DNA of 64,000 bases from a virus (IMGVR_UViG_3300028048_000089:51329-115328), one strand, 5' to 3'; shown: positions 18,144 through 43,347, counted from the stretch's first letter. A program made the numbers and translations. Notes: generated from the sequence alone by a model not told the origin.

Positions 18144-18644
18144 TTACTTCTCCTCATCATTTAATAAATTAAAGTCATTTTGTACATGTGAGAATTGACT
18201 ATCTTCAAAAGTACTTTCATACACAGGGGCAATTTTACAAGTAACATATGCAGGAGTTACTGCAATAGTACTCATATCTTCAACCATAAATAATCTTCCT
18301 TTTGCATCATCAAGACCACTAGGAACAATAAATAAAGCACCTCTTTGTAATCCTTTTAACTCATATGGTACTTGAATCAATGAAGCACTTTCATCAAGTT
18401 CAGCATTCCACCCCATTTTCTTCATAGTATATTGATTTGGATGTTCAACAAAAATACAACCAACTTGTTCAGGTGGATTGTAGAATGAATCCAATTCTCC
18501 ATATCCATTATAGCGTTTACTACCTTGTTTTGGAGACCTATAGATAACATTAATACCTATAAGTTTGACCATTTGTTCAAAATAGAATCTTTGAAGTTTT
18601 AGATTATTCTGATTTAGTAAAATGCCTGTATCTTTTTGTTCCAT
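18144..18644 (-). CDS. Head closure / neck protein (T4 gp14-like)
   Basis: 166 aa; YFEQMVKLIGINVIY start and TMKKMGW; lies between gp13-like and gp15-like genes. Confidence 0.55.
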   Translation of the reverse strand: MEQKDTGILLNQNNLKLQRFYFEQMVKLIGINVIYRSPKQGSKRYNGYGELDSFYNPPEQVGCIFVEHPNQYTMKKMGWNAELDESASLIQVPYELKGLQRGALFIVPSGLDDAKGRLFMVEDMSTIAVTPAYVTCKIAPVYESTFEDSQFSHVQNDFNLLNDEEK

Positions 18645-20374
18645 TATTTAATTTTAACTTTACCTTTAACTTCTTTATCTTTTGCTTTGTAACCATATGA
18701 TAAACTTTCACAAACTAAATTGCCATTATCATTTGTACAAACTAAATTAAATGTTCTTTTAGATTTACTGAATGTTTCATTCATACCAACAAATCTACAT
18801 CTGTTATTTTTAACACCTTTGTTATCTAAGACAAATGTAGTGTCTTTTGTGTTACCACTCTTGAATGTAATAACACCTTCAACAATAAGTTTATTGTCTT
18901 CTAAATTACAAGATGTCATTGTATATTTATCAACATTATTATAAGTTGCTTCAAGATATTTATTAACTAATGTATTAAATGTATCTTCAGATAAACCATT
19001 GAGTTCTAAAGATTCTTTAGCCATGATTGAAGGTCTTTTGTTTTCTTCTTCATCAGTAACTTCATCTTCAACTTTGTCTTCACCAACTTCATTGTTTGTG
19101 AGTTCATCTTCAACAGTAGCAGAAGAATTTTCAATTTCATCTTTACCAGTTGTTGGAGAAGGTTCTTCTTGAGGAATATCAAGAGTTGCAATTTGACCAA
19201 CTAATTCAAAACCATCTTTAGAGCCACAATGCGGACAAGTTTCACCAACATTGTAAACATCTGAATCTTCATCTTTTTCTAAGAGTTCAGGTTTCTTAAA
19301 GATAGGCGTTTTACAAACTGGACATCTTAACAATACATTACCGACATAAGAATCTTTTAATTCTTCAACTGTATCTGCATCAACATCAACAACTTGTTCA
19401 ATATGTTCATCATTGCCTTCTTCAATAAATTTCTTGCCTTCTTCAACTTCATCTTTATCTAATAAATCAACAACAAGGCCTTCATTTAAATCTTCATTGA
19501 ATTGTTCAATTGGATAATTCTTTCTTAAATCATTAATGCTACCTGCTTCAAGACCATTTTGTTTTAAGAATTCTTTAACATGTCTTAAAGTTGTTTGAGA
19601 AGAAGCCCAGCCTAAGTAACCTTTTCTTAATAGAGTTGCTTTACCATCTTTTGTAATTTTACAAACAGGAGTACCATAAGAATAAAGAATCTTTGTACCA
19701 TCTGGTCTTTCATCAACTTTTGCTTTACCATAGAATGATTTTCTTGAATCATATTCAGGAGCCATATCATGCACAGGTTCTTCTTTAAGATTACAAGATT
19801 CTTCAACTCTACCATTTTCACTATCCCAAATCTTTGTAGGATTACCATTCACATAATGTAATAATTCCCAATGTTTATCAGCCTTCTTTGATTCTAATGT
19901 TGCAATAAAATCATCAACATTATCAAGAGAAGAAAAGACTTGAGAATTTTTTGGATTAGCACCATCACTTAAAACATAATAATCTTCTTGAGATTCAGTA
20001 ACAACCACATCTTCTTTTAATAAAGTCGCACCATTGATAAAATCTTTCTTGGAGACTTCAATTGTGTTACCATCTTCACCTTTAAGAAGAATTGTATCAC
20101 TATAACCAATCTTATGACCACCATCTTTATCAGTGACAATTTCAAATTTATTGCCATTATAATCAACATGGTCACCAGTTCTAGCATAATAATATGCTTG
20201 ACCTTTGTCATACATATCTTTACCAGAAATATTAATTGTTTGAACAGATTCTTTAATTGTCTTCTTTTGAGAAGTCTTTCTTACTTTTTTAACTTCTTCT
20301 TTAACAACATCATCACTGATGTCATCTAATGCCTTAAAAGCATCAACAATAGTAATACCTTTTACTTCTTGCAT
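18644..20374 (-). CDS. Acidic multidomain putative internal head protein with a Zn ribbon
   Basis: Segments separated by IKES, LKED, LKEE, LNEG and KESLE motifs; CPVC/CPHC pair; SRKSFYGKAKV...YSYGT...SQTTLRHVKEF module. Confidence 0.6.
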   Translation of the reverse strand: MQEVKGITIVDAFKALDDISDDVVKEEVKKVRKTSQKKTIKESVQTINISGKDMYDKGQAYYYARTGDHVDYNGNKFEIVTDKDGGHKIGYSDTILLKGEDGNTIEVSKKDFINGATLLKEDVVVTESQEDYYVLSDGANPKNSQVFSSLDNVDDFIATLESKKADKHWELLHYVNGNPTKIWDSENGRVEESCNLKEEPVHDMAPEYDSRKSFYGKAKVDERPDGTKILYSYGTPVCKITKDGKATLLRKGYLGWASSQTTLRHVKEFLKQNGLEAGSINDLRKNYPIEQFNEDLNEGLVVDLLDKDEVEEGKKFIEEGNDEHIEQVVDVDADTVEELKDSYVGNVLLRCPVCKTPIFKKPELLEKDEDSDVYNVGETCPHCGSKDGFELVGQIATLDIPQEEPSPTTGKDEIENSSATVEDELTNNEVGEDKVEDEVTDEEENKRPSIMAKESLELNGLSEDTFNTLVNKYLEATYNNVDKYTMTSCNLEDNKLIVEGVITFKSGNTKDTTFVLDNKGVKNNRCRFVGMNETFSKSKRTFNLVCTNDNGNLVCESLSYGYKAKDKEVKGKVKIK

Positions 20375-20383
20375 ATTACTCTC

Positions 20384-22567
20384 CTATTTAACTTTACTTA
20401 CAGTATAAACATTTCTGTTATGATAAGAATCTTCTGGACTTGTTTCTTCTAATTGTTTCTTTTTATCCATACATTCTTTTCTAGAACCAACCATTATTCT
20501 ATCAATTTTAATTGGTCTACCAGAATGAGTATCTAAAACTTTAACATGCAAAGAATAAACATCATCTGCACCTTCTTTTAAAGATTCATTTTTCTTTGTC
20601 TTATATGCAACTAAAGGATAATGACTCTTTTCATGTTCCTGTTTTTTATCTTTATATTCAATAAAAAGTAATCCATTAGGAACCTCATAGTTATCTTCAA
20701 CTATATCATAGTATTTAATGTTATTCTCTTTAGCATAGTCTTCTAGATATTTATATGCTTCTTCATATGTATCAAATAAATCAATCTCATCACCATCTTC
20801 AGTTTCAATTGTTTTTGATTCTTCTAATGATTCTTCTACATCATCAAAGTCATCAATAATTCCTTTAACAACAGGAAGACCAAATTTAGATTCACCAACA
20901 TTTAAACCATTTTTATTTGTGATAACATATCTATCACCAGCATCAATAATGTTGTACCCTTTATATTTACACACAAAACCTTTGCCTCTTGATTCATCTA
21001 AAGATTCAGCTTTATCTTTTTTACCTAAACCCCAAGTATCAATGCCATCATAACCCCAAATAAGTTTATCATCTTCACTTTCAATTTCACCACTTGGAGA
21101 TACATAAACTTCAACTGAAGCAAAACCATCTCTATCAACTAATTTTCTAGCAGTTTCAATTGCTTCTTCTCTTGTAGCAAAATTGTCTGTGTAAATTTCA
21201 GAGATACCTTGGTCTCTTAAATCTTCATCTTCCCAATATTTAATATAAATTTCTTCAAAAGATTCTTTAATAGTATCTTCTTTACAACAATGCTTTTTAT
21301 AATGATTTCTTGCTTCAGGTTTTAAATTTTGTTTAGAAGAATCTTCACCTAAACTAACACTAGAAGTTTCAGAAGCATCATCACTTCCCATTGTGTGATT
21401 GAAGAATTCAGCTTCTCTTGCAGGGTCACCACAAAATCTAACTTTTACTTTTTTATCTTTCTTTTCATCTAAATCATCATTAAGAATCTTATAACCAGTT
21501 TCACCATTAGAAGCAGGACCCCAAGCAACACCAAGAGGAGTTAAACCAAATTCTTCTTTTAATTCTTGGAAAAACTTAGTAAATCTTTCAATTTGTTGTT
21601 CTCTAAAGTCATCTTCTAAATCATCAAGGTAATCTTCATGTTCAATATTAATATAGGCTGCTTCATAATATCCTGGTTCAATATCTAACATAACATCTTC
21701 AAGATTGAGGTTATATCCATATTGTTGTTCACCATCAACAACATCTGCATCCCAGGCCATTCTCTTTGTTTCTTCATTAAAGTCATAGAGTTTGTCTTTT
21801 AATCTTTCTTGTTCATCTTCATCTAAGATACACACCTTTTCTTCATCCCGATACTTTTGTTCAAAGGCATCTTTAGCATCTTCAAAAGCATCCCAATCTA
21901 TTTCACCATCTTCATTTTCAAATTGTTCTTCTTGAGGATAATCTGGATTATGATGCATATTCCAATAAAATTCATCAATTGTATAGAAAACTAATAATGG
22001 GAAATGTTCTGGACCTCTACCGAAATTAGAAGTACCTTCATCAAGTTTCTTTTCTTCTTTTTCGCACTTGATATTAGTTTCAAAATATCTCCAATCACCA
22101 TTTAAATCTCTCATATACCAATAAGTGATATCATCTCTTGGGTCAATAGCACCATTTTCAAAATCTTCTTTTGAGAAATCCCAAAGGTCACCATTATCAT
22201 AAGCATCACCAAACTTACTCATGTATTCTTTAATATTATGATTGAATTCAACACAAGCACCATTCACTACATCATTTGCAGATTCAATGAGATAATCTTT
22301 ACCAACATGATTACAAATTTCATCTATGATTGCTTTATCATCAATGCCACTCATCATAGCATCAAAAATATCCCAATAACCTGTAACTTGCCACCAAGCA
22401 GAATCTGGCCACACTCTTTCAATTGCATCTTGATAGGCAATCTCAAAAGGTTTTATCTTCATCAATTCATTGTAATCATTAATGTTACCATCAAAATGTA
22501 AACATTTGGCATTTAATTTCTCTCTAGCAGCATTTAATTCATTTCTTAAATTATCTAGTTTACTCAT
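20384..22567 (-). CDS. Acidic multidomain putative internal head protein
   Basis: Repeated linkers ESFEE, ESLDES, ESLEES and ESLKEG. Start moved to ATG 22567, which has an AAGGAG RBS. Confidence 0.6.
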   Translation of the reverse strand: MSKLDNLRNELNAAREKLNAKCLHFDGNINDYNELMKIKPFEIAYQDAIERVWPDSAWWQVTGYWDIFDAMMSGIDDKAIIDEICNHVGKDYLIESANDVVNGACVEFNHNIKEYMSKFGDAYDNGDLWDFSKEDFENGAIDPRDDITYWYMRDLNGDWRYFETNIKCEKEEKKLDEGTSNFGRGPEHFPLLVFYTIDEFYWNMHHNPDYPQEEQFENEDGEIDWDAFEDAKDAFEQKYRDEEKVCILDEDEQERLKDKLYDFNEETKRMAWDADVVDGEQQYGYNLNLEDVMLDIEPGYYEAAYINIEHEDYLDDLEDDFREQQIERFTKFFQELKEEFGLTPLGVAWGPASNGETGYKILNDDLDEKKDKKVKVRFCGDPAREAEFFNHTMGSDDASETSSVSLGEDSSKQNLKPEARNHYKKHCCKEDTIKESFEEIYIKYWEDEDLRDQGISEIYTDNFATREEAIETARKLVDRDGFASVEVYVSPSGEIESEDDKLIWGYDGIDTWGLGKKDKAESLDESRGKGFVCKYKGYNIIDAGDRYVITNKNGLNVGESKFGLPVVKGIIDDFDDVEESLEESKTIETEDGDEIDLFDTYEEAYKYLEDYAKENNIKYYDIVEDNYEVPNGLLFIEYKDKKQEHEKSHYPLVAYKTKKNESLKEGADDVYSLHVKVLDTHSGRPIKIDRIMVGSRKECMDKKKQLEETSPEDSYHNRNVYTVSKVK

Positions 22568-22577
22568 TTTAATCTCC

Positions 22578-23294
22578 TTAATCAACTGGATAGAATAAAT
22601 TACTATTATTTCTTAATATTTCTCTTAAATTTTCTAATTCTCTATTACCTTCTTCAAGTAATGTATCACCATCAATTGTGTATAAAGCATTACTTTGTTT
22701 TGCATAGGTTCTAATTCTACCTAATGCTCTCTTTGTTAATGCTAATGCATGTCTTTGAAGAATATCAATCCAATAATCATTCTTAATGTCATCAACATCT
22801 TCAAACAAAGGCACATATTCAATTACAATAGTAGAAGGAACTCCACTAGAAATATTTATATACAATTTGTTCTCATGCTTGTCTTCTCTAAAAGCCAAGT
22901 CTGTAGATTGTGTATTTCTAAGTTGTAATAATGTATTATAAGTCATGTAGTTGGTTAAGTAGTTATTTAAGTTATACATTGAACCACCATTACTATATGC
23001 TAACCACACTTGAGCATACATAGGGTCAACACTACTAATACCACCATTACCAGGACCTTGGTCACCAATGGCTGCATCTCTATAGACATTAACAATTGCA
23101 CTATGTTTAAAATCAGTTAAATCAATACAAGATGCAAAAGGAACTTGAACAAGTTTAGTTTCATCTATGTATCTTTGAATCTCTCTAAGAGATTGCATAA
23201 CTAACTTACCAATCATCTCATCAGTAATTTCTAATTCAAGAAGACCACCAGTTAACTCAAGTTTAATTGCTTCAATATAATCAGTTAATTGCAT
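22578..23294 (-). CDS. Neck / head-tail adaptor protein (T4 gp13-like)
   Basis: IKLELTGGLLELEI N-terminus and WIDILQRHALALTKRALGRIR...IDGDTLLEEGNRELENL C-terminus match gp13-like proteins. Confidence 0.8.
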   Translation of the reverse strand: MQLTDYIEAIKLELTGGLLELEITDEMIGKLVMQSLREIQRYIDETKLVQVPFASCIDLTDFKHSAIVNVYRDAAIGDQGPGNGGISSVDPMYAQVWLAYSNGGSMYNLNNYLTNYMTYNTLLQLRNTQSTDLAFREDKHENKLYINISSGVPSTIVIEYVPLFEDVDDIKNDYWIDILQRHALALTKRALGRIRTYAKQSNALYTIDGDTLLEEGNRELENLREILRNNSNLFYPVD

Positions 23295-23378
23295 TTATAT
23301 CATCTCCAAAAAGAATAGTATATCTATCATTAAATTTAGCAACTATATAAAATTGTATAATTTTAAGCACTATTTACA

Positions 23379-23414: not shown

Positions 23415-23490
23415 TGGTTACAGGGGGAGGACTTGAACCTCCGACCTCCAGGTTATGAGCCTGGTAAGCTACCTCTGCTATCACCCTGCG
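23415..23490 (-). tRNA. tRNA-Met(CAT), initiator type
   Basis: CGCAGGG...CCAGG-CTCATAA-CCTGG...GGAGG-TTCAAGT-CCTCC-CCCTGTA-A-CCA; 76 nt; C1xA72 mismatch; encoded CCA. Confidence 0.95.
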
Positions 23491-23672
23491 ATATCATCTT
23501 TAATAATTAGATTAGAATTGCCACTATCTAATCTCATTTGGGTTACATAAACACATAACGAATATAGTAGCAATTCTTTTTAATGCTCTTAATAACATAG
23601 TTTCTCCAATCTAGGTTTTAACGAGTTTTTTCTTCTCAATTAGAGCAAGATTGGCTATGACATTTGTATTTC

Positions 23673-23793
23673 GGCGGGGATGGAGAGGTATTGCACCTCA
23701 CAAACATTAAGATTCTTACACAGGACTTTTAATCATTTACCATGGACATGAAACCTTGTCGCTTAAATCATTTTCTACTTAAGTTACAACCCC
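23673..23793 (-). ncRNA. tRNA-like element (~120 nt, non-canonical)
   Basis: 5' GGGGTTG pairs with 3' CATCCCC-G-CC (one mismatch); T-arm-like GAGG-TGCAATA-CCTC; long D-like stem CTTAAGT/ATTTAAG; no clean anticodon arm. Confidence 0.45.
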
Positions 23794-23815
23794 AGAAAGA
23801 CTCCGAAGAGTCTTT
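23794..23815 (-). terminator. UUCG-capped hairpin, probable terminator or 3' boundary of the large RNA
   Basis: Minus strand AAAGACTC-TTCG-GAGTCTTT-CT. Confidence 0.65.
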
Positions 23816-24892: not shown

Positions 24893-24898
24893 TATTAT

Positions 24899-24928: not shown

Positions 24929-24944
24929 CTTTTTTTATACATCT

Positions 24945-25510: not shown

Positions 25511-25516
25511 CATATT

Positions 25517-25663: not shown

Positions 25664-26788
25664 CTACTTTTCAACTCTTGCTTTAAGTTCAATTGGTTTT
25701 CTTGCTTTAATATGACCTGTATTATGATTGTCTTCTTTCATATCTTTGACTGCACCAACAAGTTTTCTTTCTGGTGTATCTTTACCAAAATGTTTATCAA
25801 GAATGTCATCATCTGTATTCTTAATTACTTTTTTAAATAAAACATCCTCGTCATCATCTAGGTCATTCCAATCAACAGTGCCTAATTTAACATCATCTTC
25901 TGATTCATCTATAATATGATTGAAACCAAAGTCATCATCAAAATCAGTACTTTCAGAAATAGATTCACCAAAATCATCATCAATATCATCTAAAGCAATA
26001 TCATCAATGAATTCAGTATTTGAGACTTCAATCTTATCATCATCATTTTCTTTTGGTTCTTCTTTATCTTCATGCTTATAGATAGCATTTGGGTCTTTCT
26101 TAAGAACTTCTAAGAAATCTTTATGAGCAACTTCCTCTTCTTTAATATGATTTAATTGTTCAATAGCATTAGCATCTGCTTCTTTATCTAACATAGCAAT
26201 AATCTTGTCATAACCAGCAATTGCTTCATCTTCATCTTTAACTAAGAAATCAATTTTTTCTTCAAATGTTTCTAATTTTGGTTCTTTAGCATCTTCTTTA
26301 GGTTCTTCAACTTCTACTTCTGCTTCAACATCAATATCTTCAGCATCTTCTTTTAATGATTCATCAACAACTTCAAAATACTTATCAAAATCCTTTAGTA
26401 AGAAATCAGGGCCAATACTACCCCAAGTACCTAAATTTGTTTCAATCTTCCTATTGCCTCTAGTATCAACTTGTTTAGCATCATAGATACAACCTTTAGA
26501 CCATAATTCACCTTCTTCATCATCTTCCATGTAATCCTTAATGCATTTAACCTTGATTGTTGCTTTATCTTCTTTTAAAGATTCTTTAACTGCAACTAAA
26601 TCTTTGGTAGAGTCAATAATATCTTCTTTATTGAAAGAAATACCAGCATCACCTTTTAACCAAATAGCATCTTCATCATACTTTTTATTTAATTCTCTAA
26701 ATTGAGATAAAAGATGTTTATATTCATCATAATTGTCTTCTTCAATACCTAAGATATCAAAAATTTCCTTATCAGTTAAATTTTTCAT
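25664..26788 (-). CDS. Acidic multidomain putative internal head protein
   Basis: Two ESLKED linkers; DEDEAIAGY...HIKEEEVAH segment has a ferritin-like helix-pair pattern. Confidence 0.6.
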   Translation of the reverse strand: MKNLTDKEIFDILGIEEDNYDEYKHLLSQFRELNKKYDEDAIWLKGDAGISFNKEDIIDSTKDLVAVKESLKEDKATIKVKCIKDYMEDDEEGELWSKGCIYDAKQVDTRGNRKIETNLGTWGSIGPDFLLKDFDKYFEVVDESLKEDAEDIDVEAEVEVEEPKEDAKEPKLETFEEKIDFLVKDEDEAIAGYDKIIAMLDKEADANAIEQLNHIKEEEVAHKDFLEVLKKDPNAIYKHEDKEEPKENDDDKIEVSNTEFIDDIALDDIDDDFGESISESTDFDDDFGFNHIIDESEDDVKLGTVDWNDLDDDEDVLFKKVIKNTDDDILDKHFGKDTPERKLVGAVKDMKEDNHNTGHIKARKPIELKARVEK

Positions 26789-32467: not shown

Positions 32468-35400
32468 CTATTCTTCATCATACTTTTCAAAATCATCATA
32501 TGCTTTATTTATATCAGGTAACCCTTTAATTGTAGGGAAAGTATCTCTCAAATCACCTTTATGCCAACATTCACCACCCATGGCATCCATACCATTATTA
32601 AATGGTGTACCATAGCCAACATGTGGGAAATCAGTCTCATCAAATAAACACCAATTTTCATCATCTACATATTCTAAAGCATATTTAGAATTCTTATTTT
32701 TCTTATTTAAGAAGAAATATATTGTTGCATCAAAGTCTTTTGTATGATGATTAAAATCAACTCTACCTTGGTCTGAATTGTTTCCAGTTATGCACCATTC
32801 AGTGCCTTTACCGTATTTAACAGATGCTTCATAGGTATTAATTTTTAAAACTAACCAATTATCATCTTCATATATTTTTTCAGAACCTGCTTTGCCTAAT
32901 TTATTTATCTCTCTTCTTGTTGGAGTTTGTTCAACATCATCTAATGCAGTTTTCAAACTATTAATTGCACTATCATGTGCCCATTCTTCATAGTTTGAAA
33001 TATCAGAGTATTCTTGAGCCCTTTTATACCTATCTTTAAGATTTAAAAGTTGCTTCTCATTTCCCATCCAATAATAAATATCTTTTGCTCTATCTGGTAA
33101 TCTATCTTTCAATTTAAAAAATCTATTAGCAAGTTCATCTCCTGCCCATTGTCTAAACTTTTCTATATCTTGCTTAGATTCATTTAGAGATTCACTAAAG
33201 AAACCACCTCTAATATATGCTTGATTAATTGCTCTAATAATATCATCAGCATCACTTACATCTAAATCAAATAACTCATCACCTACAGACGTATAGACTG
33301 CTAAAAGATTTTCTCCTTTACTATCTACTTTCTCTTCTGGGAATATATCATACCAATAAAATTTTCCTTCTGGTTCAAATAAGTCTTTTCTATCTAATAT
33401 CTTTCTAATTGCATTAAGTTGTTCTGGTGTAGGTCTTGCTTTATCTGGCATACTTAAATATGGGTAAGTAACATTCATTTTTATACAATTATCATAAATA
33501 GCATTTAGATTGTACCCTTTTTGATATGCCCAATCTTCAAAATCACTATGTTCATATATTGGGTCTTCTCCTACTTCATCCCAATATTCTTGAGCATTAT
33601 CTGGATTTAAGAAATGACCATTAGGAAGAATATAAGTTGACCACATATAAAGTTCTTCTTGTCCAAATTCTTTATCTAAAGCATCTAGAACATTATCTTT
33701 AACATCTTCATGTAAAGATTCTTTAATATTGTCATATTTGATGTTATATTTATCAGCATTCTGTTTTAATTCAGCATTAATGTTACTGTTAAAAATGTTA
33801 GGGAACTCATTTGTAGAATGAGCACCTTTAATGCTCACTATTTCTAAGACATTACTTAAGTCATATGATGACACACCAATTTCATCTAAGAAAACTATGT
33901 CATCATCATAATGATAATATGCTTTGCTTATTGTTTTAGTTTTATTAAAATTTTTAGCAACTGCATATCTACCCTTTGCAACTGCTACAATATCTTCCTT
34001 ATTAAATTTACATTTCAATGTTATTCTGTTTTTGTATATTCTGAATCTATAATAATCAGTATAGAACAGTATTATTTTTGTATTTCTATCAGTAACATTA
34101 TCAAAATGCACCCAATCATTATCATCAGGAATCCACTGACCCTCAATAACATCACCACTAAATAGTCTATAGAACTCATCATTTGTTATAGTTCTATAGC
34201 AAATAACCTCATCAGATAAATCATCTCTACTTATTGGTGTTGAAATTTCTATATCTTTGTTAAAAGTTTCTTCCTCTAATGATTCACCAAAGAAACCTCT
34301 AGACATAGCAAATTTAACATCACTTATAATCTCATCACTTGTAGGGTTATTAAATTGTAAGTCCCATTTTTGATGAGCATAATTTGTACCTACAAATGCT
34401 TGAATATCATAAATCTTCTTTGAGTATTTATTCTTAAGAATGTAATCAACAAAATCTTGTAATGAGTTTAGTTGACTTGAAGTTATTGAACTATAAGGAA
34501 TAACAAAGTACGCTCTATCTTCAATATCAGCTTTTGAGCCATCGTTAACTCTTATCAATTTAAAGAATCTAGTAAAGAAGTTTGTTAAGTTAGAAGTATC
34601 AAACTCATTTTCTATTTCTTGCTCATTAAGACCTTCAATATCCATTAAACATTGAAAAGCTAAATCACCATGCATTTCAAATCTTTTACCAGATAATAAA
34701 TACTTACCATCTGGCATAATAAATGCAGGACCACAAGATTGATATGTATTACTTACTAAATCAGGATATTTTTTACATATATCTTCCAAAGTAAATGAAA
34801 ACTCATCGCCCTTAATTTCTACTTCTTCATTCATATGTTTAAAATAATGAACTTGTTGAAGTCTCTTTTCAGCTTCTTTCTTAGTATCATAAGTTCCTAA
34901 GTTCTTAGTTCCATCTTCACTTTGAACTTGATATTTACCATTATTTAATTTAACTATTTTTTCATTTAGTTGTTTAAATTCATCTAAACTATATATTTCT
35001 AAATTGTGAGGTTTAGCATTCTTCTTTAACCAAATTTCATTTTCTGGGTACTGTTTATTTGCACTATAATAAACATAAGTATGCTGAGTTAATTTCCAAT
35101 CAACATCTTCTTCATTAATTTCTCCTACTAGAATAGTCTTAAAATTATTTCTATTAATGAAATTCTTATCTATTGTCCAATGTACACCTAAGTTATTTAA
35201 ATCAATTTGGTTTTTATCCTTCCAAAGTAACCCTCTATAAACTTTTAAAGGAAACTTTAGATTATTGCAAAAATCAACAACACTATCAAAATCATCCTCA
35301 TGGTCTTGAGTTGTCTTAGTGGCTAAATCTTTTTGAGAGTCTCCCATATTTTTAAAGTATCTCATTTGCTGATTGAAAAAATTCTTTTTAACTTCCTTTT

Positions 35401-38400
35401 TATTGGTGTTATATTCTTTTAAAGGCTCACTAAAGAACCCACCTCTAATATAGGCTCTATTAATTGCTTTAATAATATCATTTGCATCACTTACATTTTC
35501 TTTACTCATTAGAGAATAGCCAGCATATAATTCATTAAATTTATCTTCATCATGATGTGGATATTCTTTGTTTATCTTCTTAGCATATTTATTTACTCTA
35601 TCTATATGAGCATGAGTTCTTTCATCAAACTTCTTTTGATAATCTTCTTTGTCTATCTTCTCAGTTAAATAGCCTCTACCATATGCTTCTTTACACTTCT
35701 TAAGAATCTCATCTGTTGTATAATCACTATCATAATATGTCTTAGGTGCATAACTTTTAAAACCAACAGTTAATTTATGATGAAATCTAAAATACCAATC
35801 TAACCACATTAAAAGTGAATTCCATTGAGTTTCATTAGGCCTATCATCTGGTAACCAAATATATTCTTCAAAACCACCATTGACTCTAATACAACCTAAT
35901 CTTTCTAATTCTGGTGTTTCAACTTGCCAAAAATCTTCTTTTGCATAACCTTTATCATATAAGAATTGTTGAACATCTCTATGAGTAGCACTACCTGAAG
36001 CACTATATTTACTTACTGGTATCTTACTTCTCCAAATAGTTAGAAATTTTCCATCTGGCATAATATAACTTGGACCATCAATTGGTCTATCACTTGTACC
36101 TATTTCTTTTTCTGCAAATTCAATAGTACTCATATCAGCATCTTCATTCATATGCTTAAACATCTCAACATCTTTAAGTCTCTCCTCTGCTTCTTTCTTA
36201 GTATCATAAGTACCTAAGTTCTTTCCTTTTTCACTTTGAACTTGCCACTTACTTCCCTTTTTAACTATTTTTTCATCTAACTTTTTAGTTTCAATAATAG
36301 GTTTGGTATTGAACACTACAAAGGTAGTTTCTCCACTATGTTCCCAACACATACCATCAAAACCTAATTCAACTAAATGTTCTTTGAAATCTTTACTTAA
36401 AATATCTTTTTCAGTTATTTCTCTATTAAAGAACTTTTTGGCTTCTTCAAATACATCATTTGTTTCCAAATCATATATTTTAGAAGTATCTAAAATGCAA
36501 GTAAAGATGTTTTTACCATGTTCTTTCGCATACTTTTTATCAGTAGTGAACCAAACACCAGGTTCAGTTTTAATATGAGTTAAATCAAACTTGTCTATAT
36601 CACTATTAGTTCCGTGATAAACCATTATCACCTTATTATCTTTATTTTCGTTAGCAACTTTTTTAACTATTTTTTCTTTAAGAGATTCTCCTGCTTTAGC
36701 ATGTATATTACCACCTTTTCTAGGTTCCATAATTTTCTTAAATGTACCAGGTTTTAAATCATAAACAACTGTACCATAACCAAAATTATCAAGACCACTA
36801 AGTCCTTGAGCATCTTTATTAAGATGTGTAACATCAACACCTTCATAACCAAGGCCTTTCATAAGCATTGTAGATATAGAATCTTCACTATTACTTTCAT
36901 ATGCTTTATGAATAATATCTAAAAGAGTTTTTTCATTAACATTAAACATCTTACTTAATGTTTTCAATGCATACTTTAAACCTGAAATATTTCTTGCTTT
37001 ATAATGTATAGCATCTTCAACATGCTTTTCAATTTCACCTGATTTCATTGTGTCAATGTCTTTCCAAACATATTCTTCAAGGCCATATTTAGCAATAAAC
37101 TCTTTAACAAGTTTTCTATAATTATCTAATGACTTGTCTTGTTCTTTTACAGCATCTTCATAATCTTCACTATCATCGGATAAATCATCTAAATCATCAA
37201 AATCTAAATCAATGTCATCATCGTCTAAATCTTCATCAACAAGAGTCCAACCAATATTAAATAATTCATCATCTAATGCTTCTTCATCAAAATTAGAATT
37301 TAACCAAGTATCTAAACTTGGTTCATAACCATCATTAATTTCTTTTAATGTATCATGTAATCTATAAGCACTATCATTATCTTTTGGTTTATAGAGATTA
37401 TAATTATCTAATTCAATTTCATATATTGGTCTACTTGGTTCATAATCATACTTCTTTATCTTGTTATCTTTATCTAAACCATAAGGCCCTTCTTTACCAA
37501 CAAAATAGAAACCAGTACCAAAATGACCAGTACCTCTACCACCCATCATCTTTCTAGTATCTGTTTTCTTGGCATAATCTAAGTCACCCCAAGTGATTGC
37601 TTTCTCTTCATTTAAATCTTCATTTATGTGGTCTGCATATTTATAGTCTTTTATTTCTTTAGGCTCACCTAATGCTTTATAAAGTTGTGTATTTTCTAAA
37701 GAATTTTTATTTACTTGTGACCATTCTTTAGTTACATCTACAATTCTAGTATTTTCATAATCATACTCTCTTCCTGTAGAATAGTCAACAAAAATATTTA
37801 TCTTTTTATCATAAGGAACGACATTTAAGTAAACATTATTGGCTTTATTATAATCTCCACTAATATATCCATATTGTTTAGCATACGCAATCATATCTGC
37901 ATGTGTATTTCCATATGGGCTTCCTATTAACCACAATTCTTCTCCATTTACATGAACACCAACTAATTTAAGTGCTCTCTTACTGTTTAAGATTTTATTC
38001 TTAATTTCATAAGGAGAAGAGGAAATTAAAATTCCTGTTTGCTCTATTTCTTTTAAACTTTCATCTAGAGATTCTTCAATAACTTTAACAACTGAAGTAA
38101 AAGGAATAATGCCATGATATTCTACTGTTGAATCATTATCCAAAACATTCTCATCTATAAACAACTTTTCTTTATCTAATTTATTGGTATCTATTTTCAA
38201 TACAATAATATTGTCTGCATATTTATCATAATCTTCAACGTCATCTAACCATTCTGCAGTTTCAGCATAAGAATAAGCAACATCTTTATCTAAAGCAAGA
38301 TAAACAACACCTCTACCTTTACTATCAGACCACATTTTTCTTCCTGTATTTCCAAGACCTTTCTCTTTAATTGATTTTAAGAATGGCTTATATGTCGCAT

Positions 38401-40255
38401 GATATAGATATTGTGGTAATTCAAAATCCACTTCTTCATCTAATGATTCATTTACTTTACCTAAAACTTTAACTTGGTCAAATAAACCAAATGTTTCAAC
38501 ATTCTTGTCATTTATACTATCATATTCAATTGCTTTAATTCCATTGTAACCTAAACCTTCTAAGATTCTCTTGAAAGCCATTGACCTTACAACTGGTCTT
38601 ATAGCAAGTCTATATGGATTAACACTATACTCATCAGCAACATTGTCAATTACTTTTCTAATTGCATCTTCACTAATGTTTAATCTTCTAATAATTGCAG
38701 TAAATTCTCTAGAGAACTTTAAAGGAGTTGAAGGAATCATATCAAACACTCTAGCATCAGTTTTACCTACATCTAAAAGATTTCCTAGAGTTGCACTACA
38801 TTTATAAACATAACCATTACCTAAGGCAAATGTTTTAGCATAATCATAATCTTTTGTAATCCAATTTATAGGTCTATTTAGATAACCTTCAATATCTTCA
38901 ACAGAACCGTGAAAATAGACATCCTCAGACACTTTTTCGCTTTCATTGAGATTTTCATCATAATTTTTATTAAACCTGCTTAAATAGTCTTTTGAGAGAC
39001 CTAAACCATTTAATACACTACTTGAGATATCTCCACTCTTAATATCAAAAATTAATCTATTTGCTAACATAATAGGAAATACATACAATCTTCCAGGATG
39101 TACATGTTCTAATTCATCTGCATCAAAACTATTGATAAAGAAGTCATCAAGTTCACCATCTGACCAATCACTAATGCCACATCTATTGTTTGCCCACATG
39201 AATAATTCAGTATAGTCTTTTATAGGTGAGATTAACCAACCATCATAATCTTCTTCTAGAACTATATATTCTGCTTCATTTTCTAAAGTATATTTAAGTG
39301 AATTTAATTTTTCTTCTTTTGTATTACCGCTAAGAGAGGCTAATTCATAACCAGCAAGTGCAGGTAAGTCACCATCCCACATAGAATCTTCATCAAATTC
39401 TTCACCTGTTATTCTTTTATACTCTTCTGGTGTTATATCTCCATTAGCACATGCTTCAAATTCAAGATAACCATCTGGAATCATATCATCAACCGCAGTT
39501 AAAAGGTCATTAAGTTCATCTCTACTATAAATTTCACATTCATTGCCTGTATTATCTGTAAAAGTTTCTTGAATAATTTGCTTTAAAACATTACTATCAA
39601 TTCTTTTATTCATAATAGCATTAACTAAAATGTTGCTATTACTTTCATTTTTATAATCTGCTTTAATTTCATCAATAACAGGAGCATTAGGAATATATGG
39701 AATACCTACATCTTCAGCATTAAAAATTTCACAACTATTATCTGGATATACTGCTAATGCATATTTAGTATCTTTGTTAATAAAGAAATAGAATCTTACG
39801 CCATTTTGTGAATAATATTGGTCAAAGTAACCTGCGCCTTCTTCTCCATTAGCCCATCTCTTTGAACCACTAATACACCACTTAGTACCTTTACCATACT
39901 TAGCACTTGCTTCATAGTTTGTAATCTCATATACTTTCCAGTCATTATCAGAATACACTAATCTAGCACCATCTTTTTCTTTATCTTTAAGTGCAGTCTT
40001 TTCTCTATGCTGTTTTAAAAGTTCATCCACATATTTCTTCAAATCATCTGGAGTACTATTTTTCATCCAGTAATAGAAGTCATTGTATGGTGATTTAATT
40101 CTTGGTTTTAAGAAAATAAAGTTCTTAACTAGACTATTAGCAAACATCTCTTTATCATCATCTAGGATAAATTTTTGAGTTGTATTATTAAGAATCCAGT
40201 TTTTAAACTTCTCTTGGTCTTCTTTTGCTTCTATGATAATTTTCTCTTTTGGCAT
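32468..40255 (-). CDS. ~2600-aa polyvalent protein with multiple ADP-ribosyltransferase-like and repeated domains
   Basis: YFHGS, YLYHAT, VYHGT, GTGFYF, VYRGL and CYRTI ART-like starts; three [ML]PDG-type repeats; two KYGKGTxWCI domains. Start moved to ATG 40255 (AAGGA RBS) because the longer start overlaps the late promoter. Confidence 0.75.
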   Translation of the reverse strand: MPKEKIIIEAKEDQEKFKNWILNNTTQKFILDDDKEMFANSLVKNFIFLKPRIKSPYNDFYYWMKNSTPDDLKKYVDELLKQHREKTALKDKEKDGARLVYSDNDWKVYEITNYEASAKYGKGTKWCISGSKRWANGEEGAGYFDQYYSQNGVRFYFFINKDTKYALAVYPDNSCEIFNAEDVGIPYIPNAPVIDEIKADYKNESNSNILVNAIMNKRIDSNVLKQIIQETFTDNTGNECEIYSRDELNDLLTAVDDMIPDGYLEFEACANGDITPEEYKRITGEEFDEDSMWDGDLPALAGYELASLSGNTKEEKLNSLKYTLENEAEYIVLEEDYDGWLISPIKDYTELFMWANNRCGISDWSDGELDDFFINSFDADELEHVHPGRLYVFPIMLANRLIFDIKSGDISSSVLNGLGLSKDYLSRFNKNYDENLNESEKVSEDVYFHGSVEDIEGYLNRPINWITKDYDYAKTFALGNGYVYKCSATLGNLLDVGKTDARVFDMIPSTPLKFSREFTAIIRRLNISEDAIRKVIDNVADEYSVNPYRLAIRPVVRSMAFKRILEGLGYNGIKAIEYDSINDKNVETFGLFDQVKVLGKVNESLDEEVDFELPQYLYHATYKPFLKSIKEKGLGNTGRKMWSDSKGRGVVYLALDKDVAYSYAETAEWLDDVEDYDKYADNIIVLKIDTNKLDKEKLFIDENVLDNDSTVEYHGIIPFTSVVKVIEESLDESLKEIEQTGILISSSPYEIKNKILNSKRALKLVGVHVNGEELWLIGSPYGNTHADMIAYAKQYGYISGDYNKANNVYLNVVPYDKKINIFVDYSTGREYDYENTRIVDVTKEWSQVNKNSLENTQLYKALGEPKEIKDYKYADHINEDLNEEKAITWGDLDYAKKTDTRKMMGGRGTGHFGTGFYFVGKEGPYGLDKDNKIKKYDYEPSRPIYEIELDNYNLYKPKDNDSAYRLHDTLKEINDGYEPSLDTWLNSNFDEEALDDELFNIGWTLVDEDLDDDDIDLDFDDLDDLSDDSEDYEDAVKEQDKSLDNYRKLVKEFIAKYGLEEYVWKDIDTMKSGEIEKHVEDAIHYKARNISGLKYALKTLSKMFNVNEKTLLDIIHKAYESNSEDSISTMLMKGLGYEGVDVTHLNKDAQGLSGLDNFGYGTVVYDLKPGTFKKIMEPRKGGNIHAKAGESLKEKIVKKVANENKDNKVIMVYHGTNSDIDKFDLTHIKTEPGVWFTTDKKYAKEHGKNIFTCILDTSKIYDLETNDVFEEAKKFFNREITEKDILSKDFKEHLVELGFDGMCWEHSGETTFVVFNTKPIIETKKLDEKIVKKGSKWQVQSEKGKNLGTYDTKKEAEERLKDVEMFKHMNEDADMSTIEFAEKEIGTSDRPIDGPSYIMPDGKFLTIWRSKIPVSKYSASGSATHRDVQQFLYDKGYAKEDFWQVETPELERLGCIRVNGGFEEYIWLPDDRPNETQWNSLLMWLDWYFRFHHKLTVGFKSYAPKTYYDSDYTTDEILKKCKEAYGRGYLTEKIDKEDYQKKFDERTHAHIDRVNKYAKKINKEYPHHDEDKFNELYAGYSLMSKENVSDANDIIKAINRAYIRGGFFSEPLKEYNTNKKEVKKNFFNQQMRYFKNMGDSQKDLATKTTQDHEDDFDSVVDFCNNLKFPLKVYRGLLWKDKNQIDLNNLGVHWTIDKNFINRNNFKTILVGEINEEDVDWKLTQHTYVYYSANKQYPENEIWLKKNAKPHNLEIYSLDEFKQLNEKIVKLNNGKYQVQSEDGTKNLGTYDTKKEAEKRLQQVHYFKHMNEEVEIKGDEFSFTLEDICKKYPDLVSNTYQSCGPAFIMPDGKYLLSGKRFEMHGDLAFQCLMDIEGLNEQEIENEFDTSNLTNFFTRFFKLIRVNDGSKADIEDRAYFVIPYSSITSSQLNSLQDFVDYILKNKYSKKIYDIQAFVGTNYAHQKWDLQFNNPTSDEIISDVKFAMSRGFFGESLEEETFNKDIEISTPISRDDLSDEVICYRTITNDEFYRLFSGDVIEGQWIPDDNDWVHFDNVTDRNTKIILFYTDYYRFRIYKNRITLKCKFNKEDIVAVAKGRYAVAKNFNKTKTISKAYYHYDDDIVFLDEIGVSSYDLSNVLEIVSIKGAHSTNEFPNIFNSNINAELKQNADKYNIKYDNIKESLHEDVKDNVLDALDKEFGQEELYMWSTYILPNGHFLNPDNAQEYWDEVGEDPIYEHSDFEDWAYQKGYNLNAIYDNCIKMNVTYPYLSMPDKARPTPEQLNAIRKILDRKDLFEPEGKFYWYDIFPEEKVDSKGENLLAVYTSVGDELFDLDVSDADDIIRAINQAYIRGGFFSESLNESKQDIEKFRQWAGDELANRFFKLKDRLPDRAKDIYYWMGNEKQLLNLKDRYKRAQEYSDISNYEEWAHDSAINSLKTALDDVEQTPTRREINKLGKAGSEKIYEDDNWLVLKINTYEASVKYGKGTEWCITGNNSDQGRVDFNHHTKDFDATIYFFLNKKNKNSKYALEYVDDENWCLFDETDFPHVGYGTPFNNGMDAMGGECWHKGDLRDTFPTIKGLPDINKAYDDFEKYDEE
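33192..35496. repeat. 70-bp near-identical direct repeat (33192-33261 and 35427-35496)
   Basis: Encodes VSDADDIIRAINQAYIRGGFFSE and VSDANDIIKAINRAYIRGGFFSE. Confidence 0.9.
34824..36276. repeat. ~140-bp diverged direct repeat (34824-34965 and 36141-36276)
   Basis: Both copies encode EKIVK...QVQSE...KNLGTYDTKKEAExRL...FKHMNE. Confidence 0.9.
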
Positions 40256-40446
40256 AATAAAATCCTTTATTTTGTTAATCAATAAATTTAGCATGATAAA
40301 TGTATTTTAATTTGAATGTTTTACTCACGCGTGTACATACGCGTATAATAGCTTTATATAGCTTATATATAATATATACATACAGTTATATAACAGTTAC
40401 AAAAGAATTATATCAAAAGAAATACTACAAAGAAAAGTTTAAATAA

Positions 40447-40496: not shown

Positions 40497-41417
40497 TTAA
40501 CCCCTTCTATAAGCATATAGATTATTGCCGAGGTCAATTTCATCACCATCGTAGGTGGCAAGGAAGTGGGCAATGCCATCTTCACTGATGCATTCTTCAA
40601 CTAAACTATCTAAGTCAATAAGATTATTATCTACAACAACTTGTGATAATTCTTCATTACTATAGATATCTTTAACAAAATCTTCAACATCCATATTAGA
40701 ACAGAGATAATCTAAGAATTCATCTTTCTTGTATTCTAAGTCAACACTACTGCTTAAGGTTTTTTCAGCCCATTCATCTTCACCATCAATAATGAAGTCA
40801 TCATCAGTTAAGATACCCGCATCAACCATTTCAGCAAGTAATCTATTATCATATTCAGCATCACCTTCAGATTCAATGTCATCAATATAACCTCTATAAT
40901 AATCATACATATCATCTTCAAATGCACTCCAGTCAATAAAGTTATCTAAGATATATGATTGGAAACTTTCAGAGAATGCTTCTAAACCCATTTCATCATA
41001 GATTTGTTCAATTTCTTCAGTAGCAGCGTCATATGCTTCATCATAGGTGCCAACCCAATATTCACCTTCAGGAGTAATAAAGTTATGACCATCACCCCAA
41101 GAACTTAATTCAATATCTTCTTCATTAACACCTAAATGTTCAGCCAATGCTTTAATGATAAATTGAGTATCATCATCTTGAATATCATCTTCTCTTAATT
41201 TTAAATCTTCGTTCATATTGTTTTCCTCACTAGAATTATTATATGCATCAAAATCTACATTGTCAATATTAAAATCTTGTCTTACTCTTTTATGTTCACT
41301 TGGAATAAAGTCAACAAAAACAGTACAAGTATCTCCATCAATTTCTTCTAAGATACCTTCTTTGTTATCCCAAACACTATTAGTATTTTTAATTTTAACT
41401 TTTTGTCCAATATTCAT
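40497..41417 (-). CDS. Acidic two-domain putative internal head protein (SH3/KOW-like N-terminus)
   Basis: MNIGQKVKIK...EGILEEI...CTVFVDF, then linker MNEDLKLRED, then a domain ending DGIAHFLATYDGDE. Confidence 0.55.
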   Translation of the reverse strand: MNIGQKVKIKNTNSVWDNKEGILEEIDGDTCTVFVDFIPSEHKRVRQDFNIDNVDFDAYNNSSEENNMNEDLKLREDDIQDDDTQFIIKALAEHLGVNEEDIELSSWGDGHNFITPEGEYWVGTYDEAYDAATEEIEQIYDEMGLEAFSESFQSYILDNFIDWSAFEDDMYDYYRGYIDDIESEGDAEYDNRLLAEMVDAGILTDDDFIIDGEDEWAEKTLSSSVDLEYKKDEFLDYLCSNMDVEDFVKDIYSNEELSQVVVDNNLIDLDSLVEECISEDGIAHFLATYDGDEIDLGNNLYAYRRG

Positions 41418-41419
41418 AA

Positions 41420-41773
41420 TTAATCAATGTCATCATATTCAGCATTTTTTCTTGCTTGATATTCTGCTTCTTCTCTATCTAGTTCAATGTCTTCTTCAAC
41501 TTTTTCTTTGAATTCTTCAAATGCATCTTCTTTACATTTATCTTTAAACCATTCTTCCATATCAGATTCAACAGCATCAAAAACACCAAATTCAACAAGA
41601 GTATTCCAGATGTCATTGTCTTTGCCATCAATGTTAATCATTTGTCTATCAAACCATTCTCTAACACCTTCAATGAATGTATCAAATGGAATTTCATAGA
41701 AGTAACTATCTTTATGGCCTTTGTATTCAAATTCTGGATAGTAAACTTCGTATCTTGTTTTGTCATCTTTCAT
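41420..41773 (-). CDS. Acidic hypothetical protein
   Basis: 117-aa ORF coupled to both neighbours. Confidence 0.55.
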   Translation of the reverse strand: MKDDKTRYEVYYPEFEYKGHKDSYFYEIPFDTFIEGVREWFDRQMINIDGKDNDIWNTLVEFGVFDAVESDMEEWFKDKCKEDAFEEFKEKVEEDIELDREEAEYQARKNAEYDDID

Positions 41774-43347
41774 TATTCTTCACCTTCTTCTTCAGATTCT
41801 TCTGCTTCTTCTTCAATTAATTCTTTAATATAATCTATTGCATCATCATAAGAATCAAATTTGTGAGTATCTAAGACATTTTGAACCATATCAACATCTT
41901 GACCTAATTCATTAGCAATGCTTTCTGCCCAATCACTTGAATCTTCTTCATATGGGTCACCATATTCTTCAGTTAAGTCTTCAGCATATTGCTCTAACCA
42001 TCTATATAAGTTACCATCAAGTTCATCATAAGCAGCTTTATTTAAGCCATCAATATACACATAACCATTAACTTCAACACTTGCATTATAACAACCAGCA
42101 TTTTCACACCAAGATTCAACTTCCCATTGAATGTCTCTTTCACTAATATTACCTTTTTCTAAGTGTGCATCTAATTCACTAGGAATATCAGCATCAGTTT
42201 CATATGTAGGAACAAGACCTTCATCATCTAACCATCTTTCAACATCTCTATAATCAATATCTAACATATCAGAGGTTTCTTTTGCTAATAATGTTGGATT
42301 TGCTTTAATAGTATCAACAGCAAACTTCTTCATATCTTCAACCCAACGGTCATAGTAATTACCATCATAATTATTTTCAGCTGAGATAAGAACAGCATCC
42401 CAGAATGGTGTTTCATCATCAATTTCAACATTCATAAGGAACTTCGCAGCTGGACCTGCAGTTTCAATACCATAGTCTTCAAACCATCTATCACCATCAT
42501 TGAACCATCTATATTCAATTTTATTAACTGCTCTGAGGATTTCACCTGCAAGAGTATCACATTTACCACTATCTGGAACTAACACATCAAATAAATGTTC
42601 AAATGACCAATCATCACCAATTGTTTTAACAATTTCATCAGCTTTTGCTTTAAGTTCATTTTCTTTAGCAATTTTGGCATCTCTTTCTGCTCTTTGTTGT
42701 GCAACTTTATCTCTTCTTGCTTTCATTCTTGCTTCAAAGTCAGCTCTTTCTCTTTCTTCTTCAGCATCTAATTCATCATCACTCATGATACCATCATCAT
42801 CAGGTGCTTCAGTTAAAGTTTCTTTGTCTTCATTTAAAGAATCATTTAATAAATGGTCTTGTGCTTGAGTAGAAAGAGATTTACACATTTTTTCTTTATC
42901 TTCTTTAGACATTTTAGCAACTCTTTCTTTTGCTTCTTTTTCATCTGCACATGTACCAAAAGCAACTAATTTATCAACTAAATCTTTATCACTACAAGAT
43001 TCTTTTAAGTCTTCATCTAAAAATAAGAAGTTCTTAACAATCTCACCATTCTTTTTACAAATACAATAACCTACTGAGTTAATATCATAAGTAAAATCTA
43101 CTAAATCTTCTACATCATCAAAATCAGCTTCAAATGGACCTTTAACAATGCCATAAGAGCCTTCAACACCCTTCTTGACATAATCATTTACAAATACTTC
43201 AGCTTCTTCTAAAGATTCAGTAGCAAATTGGTCATCATCATAAAAAGAAAGTTTGCCACCATAGACATTATCATATTTATATGCATCATATTCTTTATCA
43301 TCAGGATTTAATAAAATACCTGTTTCAACTTCATAATACTTTTTCAT
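41773..43347 (-). CDS. Acidic multidomain putative internal head protein
   Basis: LDEDLKES and DSLNEDKETLTEA linkers; LVPDSGKCDTLAGEILRA...RWFNDGD module; late-promoter motif upstream. Confidence 0.6.
   Translation of the reverse strand: MKKYYEVETGILLNPDDKEYDAYKYDNVYGGKLSFYDDDQFATESLEEAEVFVNDYVKKGVEGSYGIVKGPFEADFDDVEDLVDFTYDINSVGYCICKKNGEIVKNFLFLDEDLKESCSDKDLVDKLVAFGTCADEKEAKERVAKMSKEDKEKMCKSLSTQAQDHLLNDSLNEDKETLTEAPDDDGIMSDDELDAEEERERADFEARMKARRDKVAQQRAERDAKIAKENELKAKADEIVKTIGDDWSFEHLFDVLVPDSGKCDTLAGEILRAVNKIEYRWFNDGDRWFEDYGIETAGPAAKFLMNVEIDDETPFWDAVLISAENNYDGNYYDRWVEDMKKFAVDTIKANPTLLAKETSDMLDIDYRDVERWLDDEGLVPTYETDADIPSELDAHLEKGNISERDIQWEVESWCENAGCYNASVEVNGYVYIDGLNKAAYDELDGNLYRWLEQYAEDLTEEYGDPYEEDSSDWAESIANELGQDVDMVQNVLDTHKFDSYDDAIDYIKELIEEEAEESEEEGEE

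Follow-up and report, generated by a model that had tools for sequence, protein, structure and literature searches.

What becomes of a series of giant, very acidic proteins encoded among the virion genes of a phage, when one short peptide recurs at the borders of their domains and the same genome encodes a head-maturation protease that such a peptide might suit? The question is raised by positions 18,644 to 43,347 of IMGVR_UViG_3300028048_000089:51329-115328, a 64,000-nucleotide (nt) stretch of viral DNA (the window) that forms the final 64 kb of a 115,328-bp viral genome with 29% GC and an estimated completeness of about 70%. Ten studies have yielded near-identical DNA, in metagenomes and metatranscriptomes of the bovine and the sheep gut, which identifies the source as an uncultivated phage of the ruminant gut or rumen. 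The original prediction for this region held that a set of acidic open reading frames (ORFs) encodes polyproteins that are packaged, cut in the prohead at ESLxE-type linkers and injected. We find that ESLxE is a real motif under selection at the level of the peptide, which occurs in these proteins only, sits where modules meet and is conserved in a lineage of large phages of gut and rumen. The most likely reading, in which we have somewhat better than even confidence, is that the S77 prohead protease processes packaged polyproteins.

The array consists of nine ORFs, all on the minus strand (which carries nearly all genes of the 115-kb genome) and all of the lengths first reported, with Glu and Asp making up 19-31% of their residues. 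The capsid/portal module lies on one side of it and the tail genes on the other, and it encloses a head-tail adaptor gene. From first gene to last, with lengths in amino acids (aa), it reads:

41773..43347, minus strand: 524-aa ORF, the first gene of the array; ESLEE at 43204-43218, variants DSLNE (residue 169) and EDLTE (residue 456)
41420..41773, minus strand: 117-aa ORF without the motif, a putative member of the system by its position
40497..41417, minus strand: 306-aa ORF with DSLVE only and no strict motif; two genes in the relative G001
32468..40255, minus strand: giant ORF, 2608 aa from ATG 40294 or 2595 aa from ATG 40255; seven ESLxE, at 38435-38449, 38060-38074, 38048-38062, 36674-36688, 34271-34285, 33707-33721 and 33179-33193; junction variants ENLNE 38942-38956, EDLNE 37607-37621, KLDE 36272-36283 and HMNE 36143-36154
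28367..32434, minus strand: 1355-aa ORF; ESLEE 30776-30790 and ESIEE 29885-29899; variants CSLEE (residue 202), SLIDE (residue 979) and EHLEE (residue 1210)
26788..28308, minus strand: 506-aa ORF; ESLKE 27145-27159, directly ahead of the C-terminal module
25664..26788, minus strand: 374-aa ORF; ESLKE 26570-26584 and 26348-26362, ESISE 25952-25966
20384..22585, minus strand: 733-aa ORF (727 aa from ATG); ESLxE at 20993-21007, 20819-20833 and 20573-20587
18644..20374, minus strand: 576-aa ORF, the last gene of the array; no strict ESLxE

The 2608-aa form of the giant ORF, as first reported, is present from ATG 40294, but the likelier start is ATG 40255 (MPKEK, 2595 aa), since an AAAGGA ribosome-binding site lies ahead of it and ATG 40294 falls inside a copy (40279-40293) of the promoter-like motif described below.

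The strict motif ESLxE occurs 15 times in the array, against 0.33 ± 0.57 expected and a maximum of 4 in 1000 shuffles that kept the composition of each protein. All 15 copies lie in 20384-43347, in six of the nine ORFs. None occurs in the remaining 121 ORFs (28.6 k aa, 0.96 expected), in agreement with the earlier remark that no clustering was seen in tail, baseplate or early proteins, and five permuted control motifs were found 0-1 times in the array and 0-3 times in the other ORFs. Glu/Lys-rich composition, which had been named beforehand as the explanation that could overturn the idea, thus fails to account for the strict motif. The shorter [LI]xE core shows no excess over shuffled sequences (120 versus 103 ± 9 in the array, 406 versus 352 elsewhere). 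Enrichment of [LI]xE or [LIVMF]xE[EDSGAK], the latter proposed originally as a check, proved weak and extended outside the array, and was rejected as evidence; likewise, what had been described as the same motif in the capsid, protease and portal proteins is the generic [LIM]xE core, with no excess over shuffles in the window.

The excess of the strict motif is replicated in related phages. G001 (IMG/VR, 161 kb, 91% complete), which has a protease of the same family that is 51% identical, carries 20 ESLxE, 16 of them in a syntenic acidic array just downstream of the head genes. In the 17-kb fragment G002, nine of ten ES[LIM]xE fall in three adjacent acidic ORFs, while in G003 (protease 50% identical, 47.5% GC) the orthologous modules carry the motif less often; by eye and unaligned, its orthologue of the 576-aa ORF has ESLKE before a conserved block where the window has EDLNE. 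A search with residues 440-1639 of the giant ORF against 1.84 billion representative proteins returned 1217 matches, of which the best 150 (117 k residues, 50%-identity clusters) contain 99 ESLxE versus 4.1 ± 2.0 in shuffles. A second set, 118 homologues of the 1355-aa ORF, many of them on contigs of 100-225 kb, contains 143 versus 7.0 ± 2.6. As a negative control, a classical polyvalent protein of 3822 aa on a temperate-phage contig (with a resolvase and a CI-like repressor) has no ESLxE. The complete 188-kb genome G004, with a protease 33% identical, shows neither an ESLxE excess nor an acidic array, so the array is not a general trait of S77 phages. Separately, a 907-aa acidic ORF of G001 (156065-158788), far from the main array and near the contig end, carries two ESLxE and may be another cargo polyprotein.

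The residues tolerated at each position indicate that the peptide is under selection. Counts of the favoured residue against its closest substitute, with P1 the final Glu of the motif, were as follows:

P5, Glu:Asp: window array 15:2; G001 array 16:0; 150 homologues 99:9
P4, Ser:Thr: window array 15:1; G001 array 16:0; 150 homologues 99:6
P3, Leu:Ile: window array 15:2; G001 array 16:2; 150 homologues 99:8
P1, Glu:Asp: window array 15:0; G001 array 16:0; 150 homologues 99:10

Position P2 is free and the other four are sharply specific, with Glu retained over Asp even though Asp roughly equals Glu in overall frequency in the three subsite sets and exceeds it in two of them. The extended logo reads (N/D)-E-S-L-(N/K/D)-E followed by S, D or E. 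In the window the Ser of the motif is encoded by TCT, TCA or AGT and the Leu by TTA, CTA or CTT; other genomes use TCA TTA for the Ser-Leu pair, or TCG TTG in the 47.5% GC relative. Because the codons vary while the amino acids are constant, the target of selection is taken to be the peptide.

The motif lies where one module ends and the next begins. Matches (tblastn) of the giant ORF to isolated phages correspond exactly to the inter-motif pieces 619-740 and 2367-2555, and the boundaries of matches in the large protein search (about 616-621, 737-749, 889-897, 1203-1209, 1334-1341 and 1381-1386) coincide with positions of the motif or its variants. When the window, G001 and G002 were compared, 14 of 70 internal BLAST end-points fell near a strict motif (-6 to +15 residues) versus 4.3 ± 2.2 for random positions, a number reached in none of 2000 random trials. 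Three linkers split the C-terminal third of the 733-aa ORF into modules of about 50-80 aa, and its homology to the G001 orthologue stops 10 aa ahead of the first of them. In homologues, 136 of 160 internal module starts (85%) have an [LIMV]xE whose end falls between -10 and +4 residues from the start, versus 29% of random positions in the same proteins, with the controls LxK (26%) and LxD (20%) at background or lower. This cross-homologue analysis supports the loose variants KLDE, HMNE and EDLNE as junctions, a part of the original prediction to which window statistics lend no support.

Individual modules show the same pattern. Among the 118 homologues of the 1355-aa ORF, high-scoring segment pairs start in a cluster at residues 970-989 and end at 1210-1219. 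The nucleotidyltransferase-like module of this ORF has [LIMV]xE ahead of 93 of 103 starts in contexts that are otherwise unrelated. Free-standing PHROG families match exactly this module (residues 984-1209, phrog_36119, 2.7e-31) and residues 198-287 of the 576-aa ORF (phage family phrog_4264, 3.6e-24, profile positions 6-89 of 93), the latter between NLKE and EDLNE, and LxE variants flank both. In the giant ORF, homology blocks A-G recur in shuffled order within other proteins. Its modules include ART-PolyVal (PF18760; 1.2e-12, 49.2 bits, Pfam cut-off 31.2), a Tpt1/KptA-like ADP-ribosyltransferase (ART) fold and two DUF2188 domains, along with a weak Pfam match to PTS_2-RNA. A protein-atlas look-up gave a weak ART-PolyVal lead for module D (score 0.89), which we do not use as evidence, and the LPD5 score in the array ORFs (18.3 bits) is under its Pfam cut-off of 27. 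Pfam scans found no peptidase domain in the nine ORFs, MPTase-PolyVal (PF18818) has no match anywhere in the roughly 70%-complete genome, and no homology to the Alt or internal (IP) proteins of T4 was found in the array ORFs.

Residues 440-1400 of the giant ORF were modelled with AlphaFold (mean predicted local distance difference test score, pLDDT, of 60). In this model the sites that can be judged lie in low-confidence stretches between domains rather than inside confident folds, and burial of the motif, another of the objections raised in advance, is thus not what the model suggests. ESLDE at 616-620 lies exactly within a gap of pLDDT below 50 (model positions 176-183) with a folded unit on either side; the double linker at 741-749 sits where pLDDT falls from 96 to 59; and KLDE and HMNE, both in low-confidence stretches, bracket a DUF2188 domain of pLDDT 85-95. 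In a Foldseek search with the confident part of the model, the best matches were Tpt1/KptA tRNA 2'-phosphotransferase and DarT, both of the ADP-ribosyltransferase fold, in agreement with the ART-PolyVal and weak PTS_2-RNA matches.

A related strain represented in a bovine-gut DNA run (X4) differs from the window by in-frame module changes whose ends lie at ESLKE or at KIVKK linker repeats, so modules have been gained and lost from linker to linker. X4 lacks 26347-26568 of the 374-aa ORF (222 nt, 74 codons), which is one module plus linker from ESLKE to ESLKE, and 36258-36659 (402 nt, 134 codons), which is the ART-PolyVal module from ESLKE-KIVKK to KLDE-KIVKK. In addition, some 245 residues (27164-27898) leading up to the ESLKE of the 506-aa ORF are swapped for 7 codons; G001 too is without this insert of about 245 aa. 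The deletion joints in X4 share 10-17 nt of common sequence. The linker thus seems to serve as a point of breakage when modules are gained or lost, which the repeated linker DNA probably helps.

The linker ends in L-x-E, which fits the cleavage rule of gp21-type prohead proteases. In T4, gp21 cleaves after the Glu of L/I-X-E, the internal proteins carry a 10-residue capsid-targeting sequence that ends in a gp21 site, and processing fails when the Glu at residue 10 of the IPIII targeting sequence is replaced by Asp; the injected ADP-ribosyltransferase Alt loses residues from both termini (PMC9026906). The head genes of the window that bear on this comparison are:

53188..54546, minus strand: major capsid protein, Gp23 family (Pfam Gp23, 6.8e-30)
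54593..56083, minus strand: head-maturation protease, T4 gp21 family (Pfam Peptidase_S77; phrog_207, 1.1e-34)
58513..60387, minus strand: T4-type portal protein (Pfam Portal_T4, 2.9e-41)

The protease, whose gene the original prediction had named, scores 33.5-33.9 bits against PF03420 (Peptidase_S77; cut-off 27), which places it in the gp21 family. It is the sole S77 match across the roughly 70%-complete genome, and its ORF extends into a C-terminal part of about 300 residues that is apparently coiled and scaffold-like. When the capsid protein of the window phage is aligned with those of three relatives, two conserved [LM]xE sites appear within an N-terminal region of about 55 aa, one of the form SLTE, DLKE or RLLE and the other (KMNE, LTE or LNE) directly before the conserved mature part. 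From this we predict a maturation site at KMNE-A (54385-54393; here and below the hyphen follows the candidate P1 Glu), and the N-terminal region is comparable to the propeptide of gp23. As a side observation, the match to the capsid gene in G003 (44905-46272) contains one in-frame TAA, which could stem from a mistake in sequencing, from a gene that is split or from an intervening element.

The most telling point comes from modules that also exist on their own. Free-standing homologues of module D begin MKFRLVE, MKFRLLE, MKFKLVE, MKLNE or MKINE directly before the domain, leaders that by analogy resemble the capsid-targeting sequences of T4. On an ENA contig (L039, 1364-4898) with Portal_T4 and an ART-PolyVal gene, three consecutive genes begin MKFRLLE-S, MKFTLVE-E and MRFRLCE-S, and M[KR]F[RT]L[LVC]E is thus a candidate for the lineage's capsid-targeting sequence. 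The same modules therefore carry a short LxE-ending leader when free-standing and ESLxE when fused, which amounts to a Rosetta-stone argument. The giant ORF read from 40255 itself begins MPKEKIIIE-A, and the domain after this leader follows ESLNE-S at another place in this protein. Within the window, only MPKEKIIIE (giant ORF), MRKRLQE (1355-aa ORF) and MNDIKE (506-aa ORF) fit such a leader; a loose leader pattern is non-specific (28 of 130 ORFs), and we rejected it as window evidence.

A further link is provided by a 15-nt promoter-like motif, TGCTAAATTWAATGA, of which 16 copies occur versus 2.35 expected, all on the minus strand (at most two mismatches). Copies of it stand ahead of the 506-, 1355-, 2608- and 524-aa ORFs, in line with the four operons of the array first reported to have it, and ahead of the adaptor, portal, terminase and tail genes. 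To judge from the genes it precedes, we infer that it is a late promoter. Copies include:

43367-43381, minus strand: copy ahead of the 524-aa ORF
28348-28362, minus strand: copy ahead of the 506-aa ORF
23327-23341, minus strand: copy ahead of the adaptor gene

Metatranscriptome contigs span the entire array; the libraries may hold DNA, and the contigs are hence not used as proof of expression.

Under the reading that we favour, the products of the array would be polyvalent cargo polyproteins, co-transcribed with structural genes, that enter the prohead. There the gp21-type Peptidase_S77 protease would cut after the last Glu of (N/D)-E-S-L-x-E and at weaker [LIMV]-x-E junctions, and the freed modules, among them several ADP-ribosyltransferase-fold domains, a nucleotidyltransferase-like domain and DUF2188 domains, would be ejected along with the DNA and then act upon the host. 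Prohead entry, cleavage by this enzyme, ejection and effector roles are thus all inferred steps. The in-silico refutation tests favoured the polyprotein-processing idea of the original prediction, and the preference for Glu over Asp at P1, the leaders and the late-type promoters add support. We advance a more ambitious version only tentatively, at a little under even confidence: the lineage would employ its T4-type prohead protease as a true polyprotein processor, a portable linker (N/D)ESLxE-(S/D/E) would allow any domain to be inserted into a capsid-delivered chain, the chain would be cut in the head into perhaps 25-40 effectors, and the linker would serve also as the breakpoint at which modules are rapidly gained, lost and shuffled. 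The phages would in effect possess a self-contained cassette system by which injected arsenals evolve.

Several observations weigh against processing by the S77 protease, or limit how far it can be taken. The strict motif is absent from the 576-, 306- and 117-aa ORFs, and also from the capsid, scaffold and portal proteins, which are obligate substrates; the enzyme therefore does not need the E-S at P5-P4, which could be read by something else. By chance alone a generic LxE turns up about every 60 aa, and in the window it shows no enrichment, which leaves the cleavage map uncertain, and the notion of dozens of products hinges on such degenerate sites, which are not callable individually. Of the AlphaFold model, 44% of residues have pLDDT below 50, so that about four of its seven sites are informative. 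The homologue sets are related to each other, and their counts are not independent events. A phmmer search of the protease against solved structures matched no gp21 entry. The phage is known from metagenomes only, and with about 70% of the genome represented another protease possibly lies in the missing part. Finally, the T4 internal proteins have been grouped with "basic proteins" (PMC9026906), from which very acidic cargo differs.

Among the alternatives, the one that survives best is that ESLxE is an uncleaved recognition or docking peptide (a capsid-targeting or scaffold-binding tag, or an inter-domain cap) and that the giant multidomain proteins act intact, packaged or not, like the virion RNA polymerase of phage N4. 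Sharp specificity at five positions would suit any peptide reader and not just a protease, the E-S pair is missing from obligate protease substrates, some polyvalent proteins are delivered unprocessed (PMC5512222), and some sites fall within predicted helices in the AlphaFold model. We nevertheless regard it as unlikely, since the L-x-E end of the motif is the very core that defines gp21 sites, the weaker junctions retain this core alone, and the free-standing homologues end a leader of 5-10 residues in L-x-E, as do the T4 targeting sequences that are cleaved (PMC9026906).

Less likely still is that the junctions are cut by a different protease, either a host enzyme after injection or a phage peptidase that is unrecognised or whose gene lies in the missing 30%. 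Iyer et al. proposed non-prohead peptidases for polyvalent proteins (PMC5512222), and an incomplete genome leaves room for one. Opposed to this are the lack of Pfam peptidase domains in the nine ORFs, the lack of MPTase-PolyVal and the presence of a single S77 protease in the genome sequence available, as well as G001, which at 91% completeness has the same motif and the same protease family; moreover, the residues at P3 and P1 fit gp21 specificity.

We give little credence to the idea that the linker is mainly a DNA-level cassette junction that promotes recombination, with no role for the peptide. The in-frame, linker-to-linker deletions of X4, with 10-17 nt in common at their joints, and the heavy shuffling of module order across homologues speak for it, but the amino acids are fixed although their codons vary from copy to copy and from genome to genome, P2 is free beside fixed P5, P4, P3 and P1, and Glu is retained over Asp; recombination at linkers is better seen as a by-product. 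That ESLxE is a chance outcome of Glu/Lys/Leu-rich composition, a notion invited by proteins that are 19-31% acidic and by the commonness of generic LxE, has a negligible probability and is refuted by the shuffles, the permuted motifs and the replication of the excess in G001 and both homologue sets.

The surroundings of the array contain further features:

22578..23294, minus strand: head-tail adaptor Ad2 gene within the array (phrog_211, 4.6e-9), which is structural and not cargo
23415-23490, minus strand: tRNA-Met (CAT)
23500-25660, minus strand: 2.1-kb stretch without ORFs that interrupts the array
43658-44455: ORF just upstream of the array
51452-52009: 185-aa protein with a HAD_SAK_2 domain (2.2e-23; known from "Swiss army knife" RNA-repair proteins), encoded between the array and the capsid gene
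56165-56845: ORF adjoining the protease gene
57321-58460 and 62223-63911: homing-endonuclease-like ORFs (HNH and GIY-YIG PHROG matches) within the head/packaging module, the second fused to, or overlapping, a terminase fragment

The ORF-free stretch is slightly GC-richer, with a copy of the promoter motif (25588-25602) at its start and the tRNA at its end, and G001 has only about 0.5 kb that matches at this place. An Rfam scan of 23500-25660 at E<=0.01 found no family besides tRNA, and the stretch may encode a large unclassified structured RNA. The ORFs at 43658-44455 and 56165-56845 have similar N-termini (IGI[VI]S[WY]LPDN ... IIIAQNWK) and are possibly paralogues; the latter has no Pfam or PHROG match. 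A megablast search of 50,697 phage records with the head genes gave no match. By capsid protein the closest isolates are Bacillus phage HSE3, Listeria phage LIS04 and Bacillus phage SP-15, at about 30% identity, and in HSE3 no such array was found in the 20 kb on each side of the capsid gene.

If cleavage of the array products by the prohead protease is confirmed, the rule of T4, a targeting sequence plus a gp21 site, would extend from single small proteins to whole polyproteins, and polyvalent proteins without a peptidase of their own would gain a release mechanism. A simple sequence rule would then predict the mature injected proteome of uncultivated phages, and the linker could be used to load several foreign proteins into T4-type capsids for separate release. 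The linker-to-linker insertions and deletions show how arsenals of injected proteins may evolve. Polyvalent proteins and gp21-type processing are both known already, and it is their combination that would be new; in agreement with the original prediction, the literature searched, which excludes most subscription journals, yielded no account of a regular linker between domains that fits a prohead protease.

A first parallel among known proteins is offered by the polyvalent proteins, which were defined, predicted to be packaged and injected, and likened to RNA-virus polyproteins by Iyer et al. in 2017 (PMC5512222). As in that class, in which a chain has 2-15 unrelated domains, the array has several unrelated domains per giant chain, the ART-PolyVal signature and a location among portal, terminase and other virion genes. 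Their release was proposed to occur via embedded peptidases, mainly the zincin-like MPTase (PMC5512222), a view repeated in a 2022 survey by the same authors, although such peptidases recur in the class without being obligatory; here, by contrast, no embedded peptidase was found, and the regular pentapeptide junction fits a separately encoded prohead protease.

The T4 internal proteins IPI-III and Alt (PMC9026906) offer a second parallel, comprising a T4-type head, an S77 protease, L/I-x-E sites that need Glu, short leaders ending in the site (candidates here, seen on free-standing homologues) and, with Alt, an ADP-ribosyltransferase among the cargo, which here is putative. However, T4 uses separate small cargo genes that lose terminal propeptides, whereas the sites here are internal and repeated, with about 15 modules per chain at most, and the proteins are very acidic. 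The Alt/VIP2 clade of ARTs was not matched: Pfam gives ART-PolyVal, a separate clade (PMC5512222), and the fold search Tpt1/KptA and DarT. As the array products would be, the T4 core proteins gp22, gp67 and gp68 are acidic, prohead-internal proteins with several L/I-x-E gp21 sites, but what gp21 makes of them is debris of the scaffold, most of which exits the head, while the pieces here are folded, enzyme-like domains.

In phiKZ, 201phi2-1 and SPN3US, head-internal proteins likewise carry a short x-x-Glu motif for a gp21-related protease, and gp175/gp245 process many such proteins, some of them several times (PMC10052503, PMC5694885). Their motif is A/S/G-x-E, and they discard N-terminal propeptides rather than release a series of functional domains. 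Such a series is typical of the polyproteins made by RNA viruses of eukaryotes, in which a single product with a recurrent short consensus likewise yields many functional proteins; unlike those viruses, the phage has a dsDNA genome, and its protease would lie outside the polyprotein and double as the enzyme of capsid maturation.

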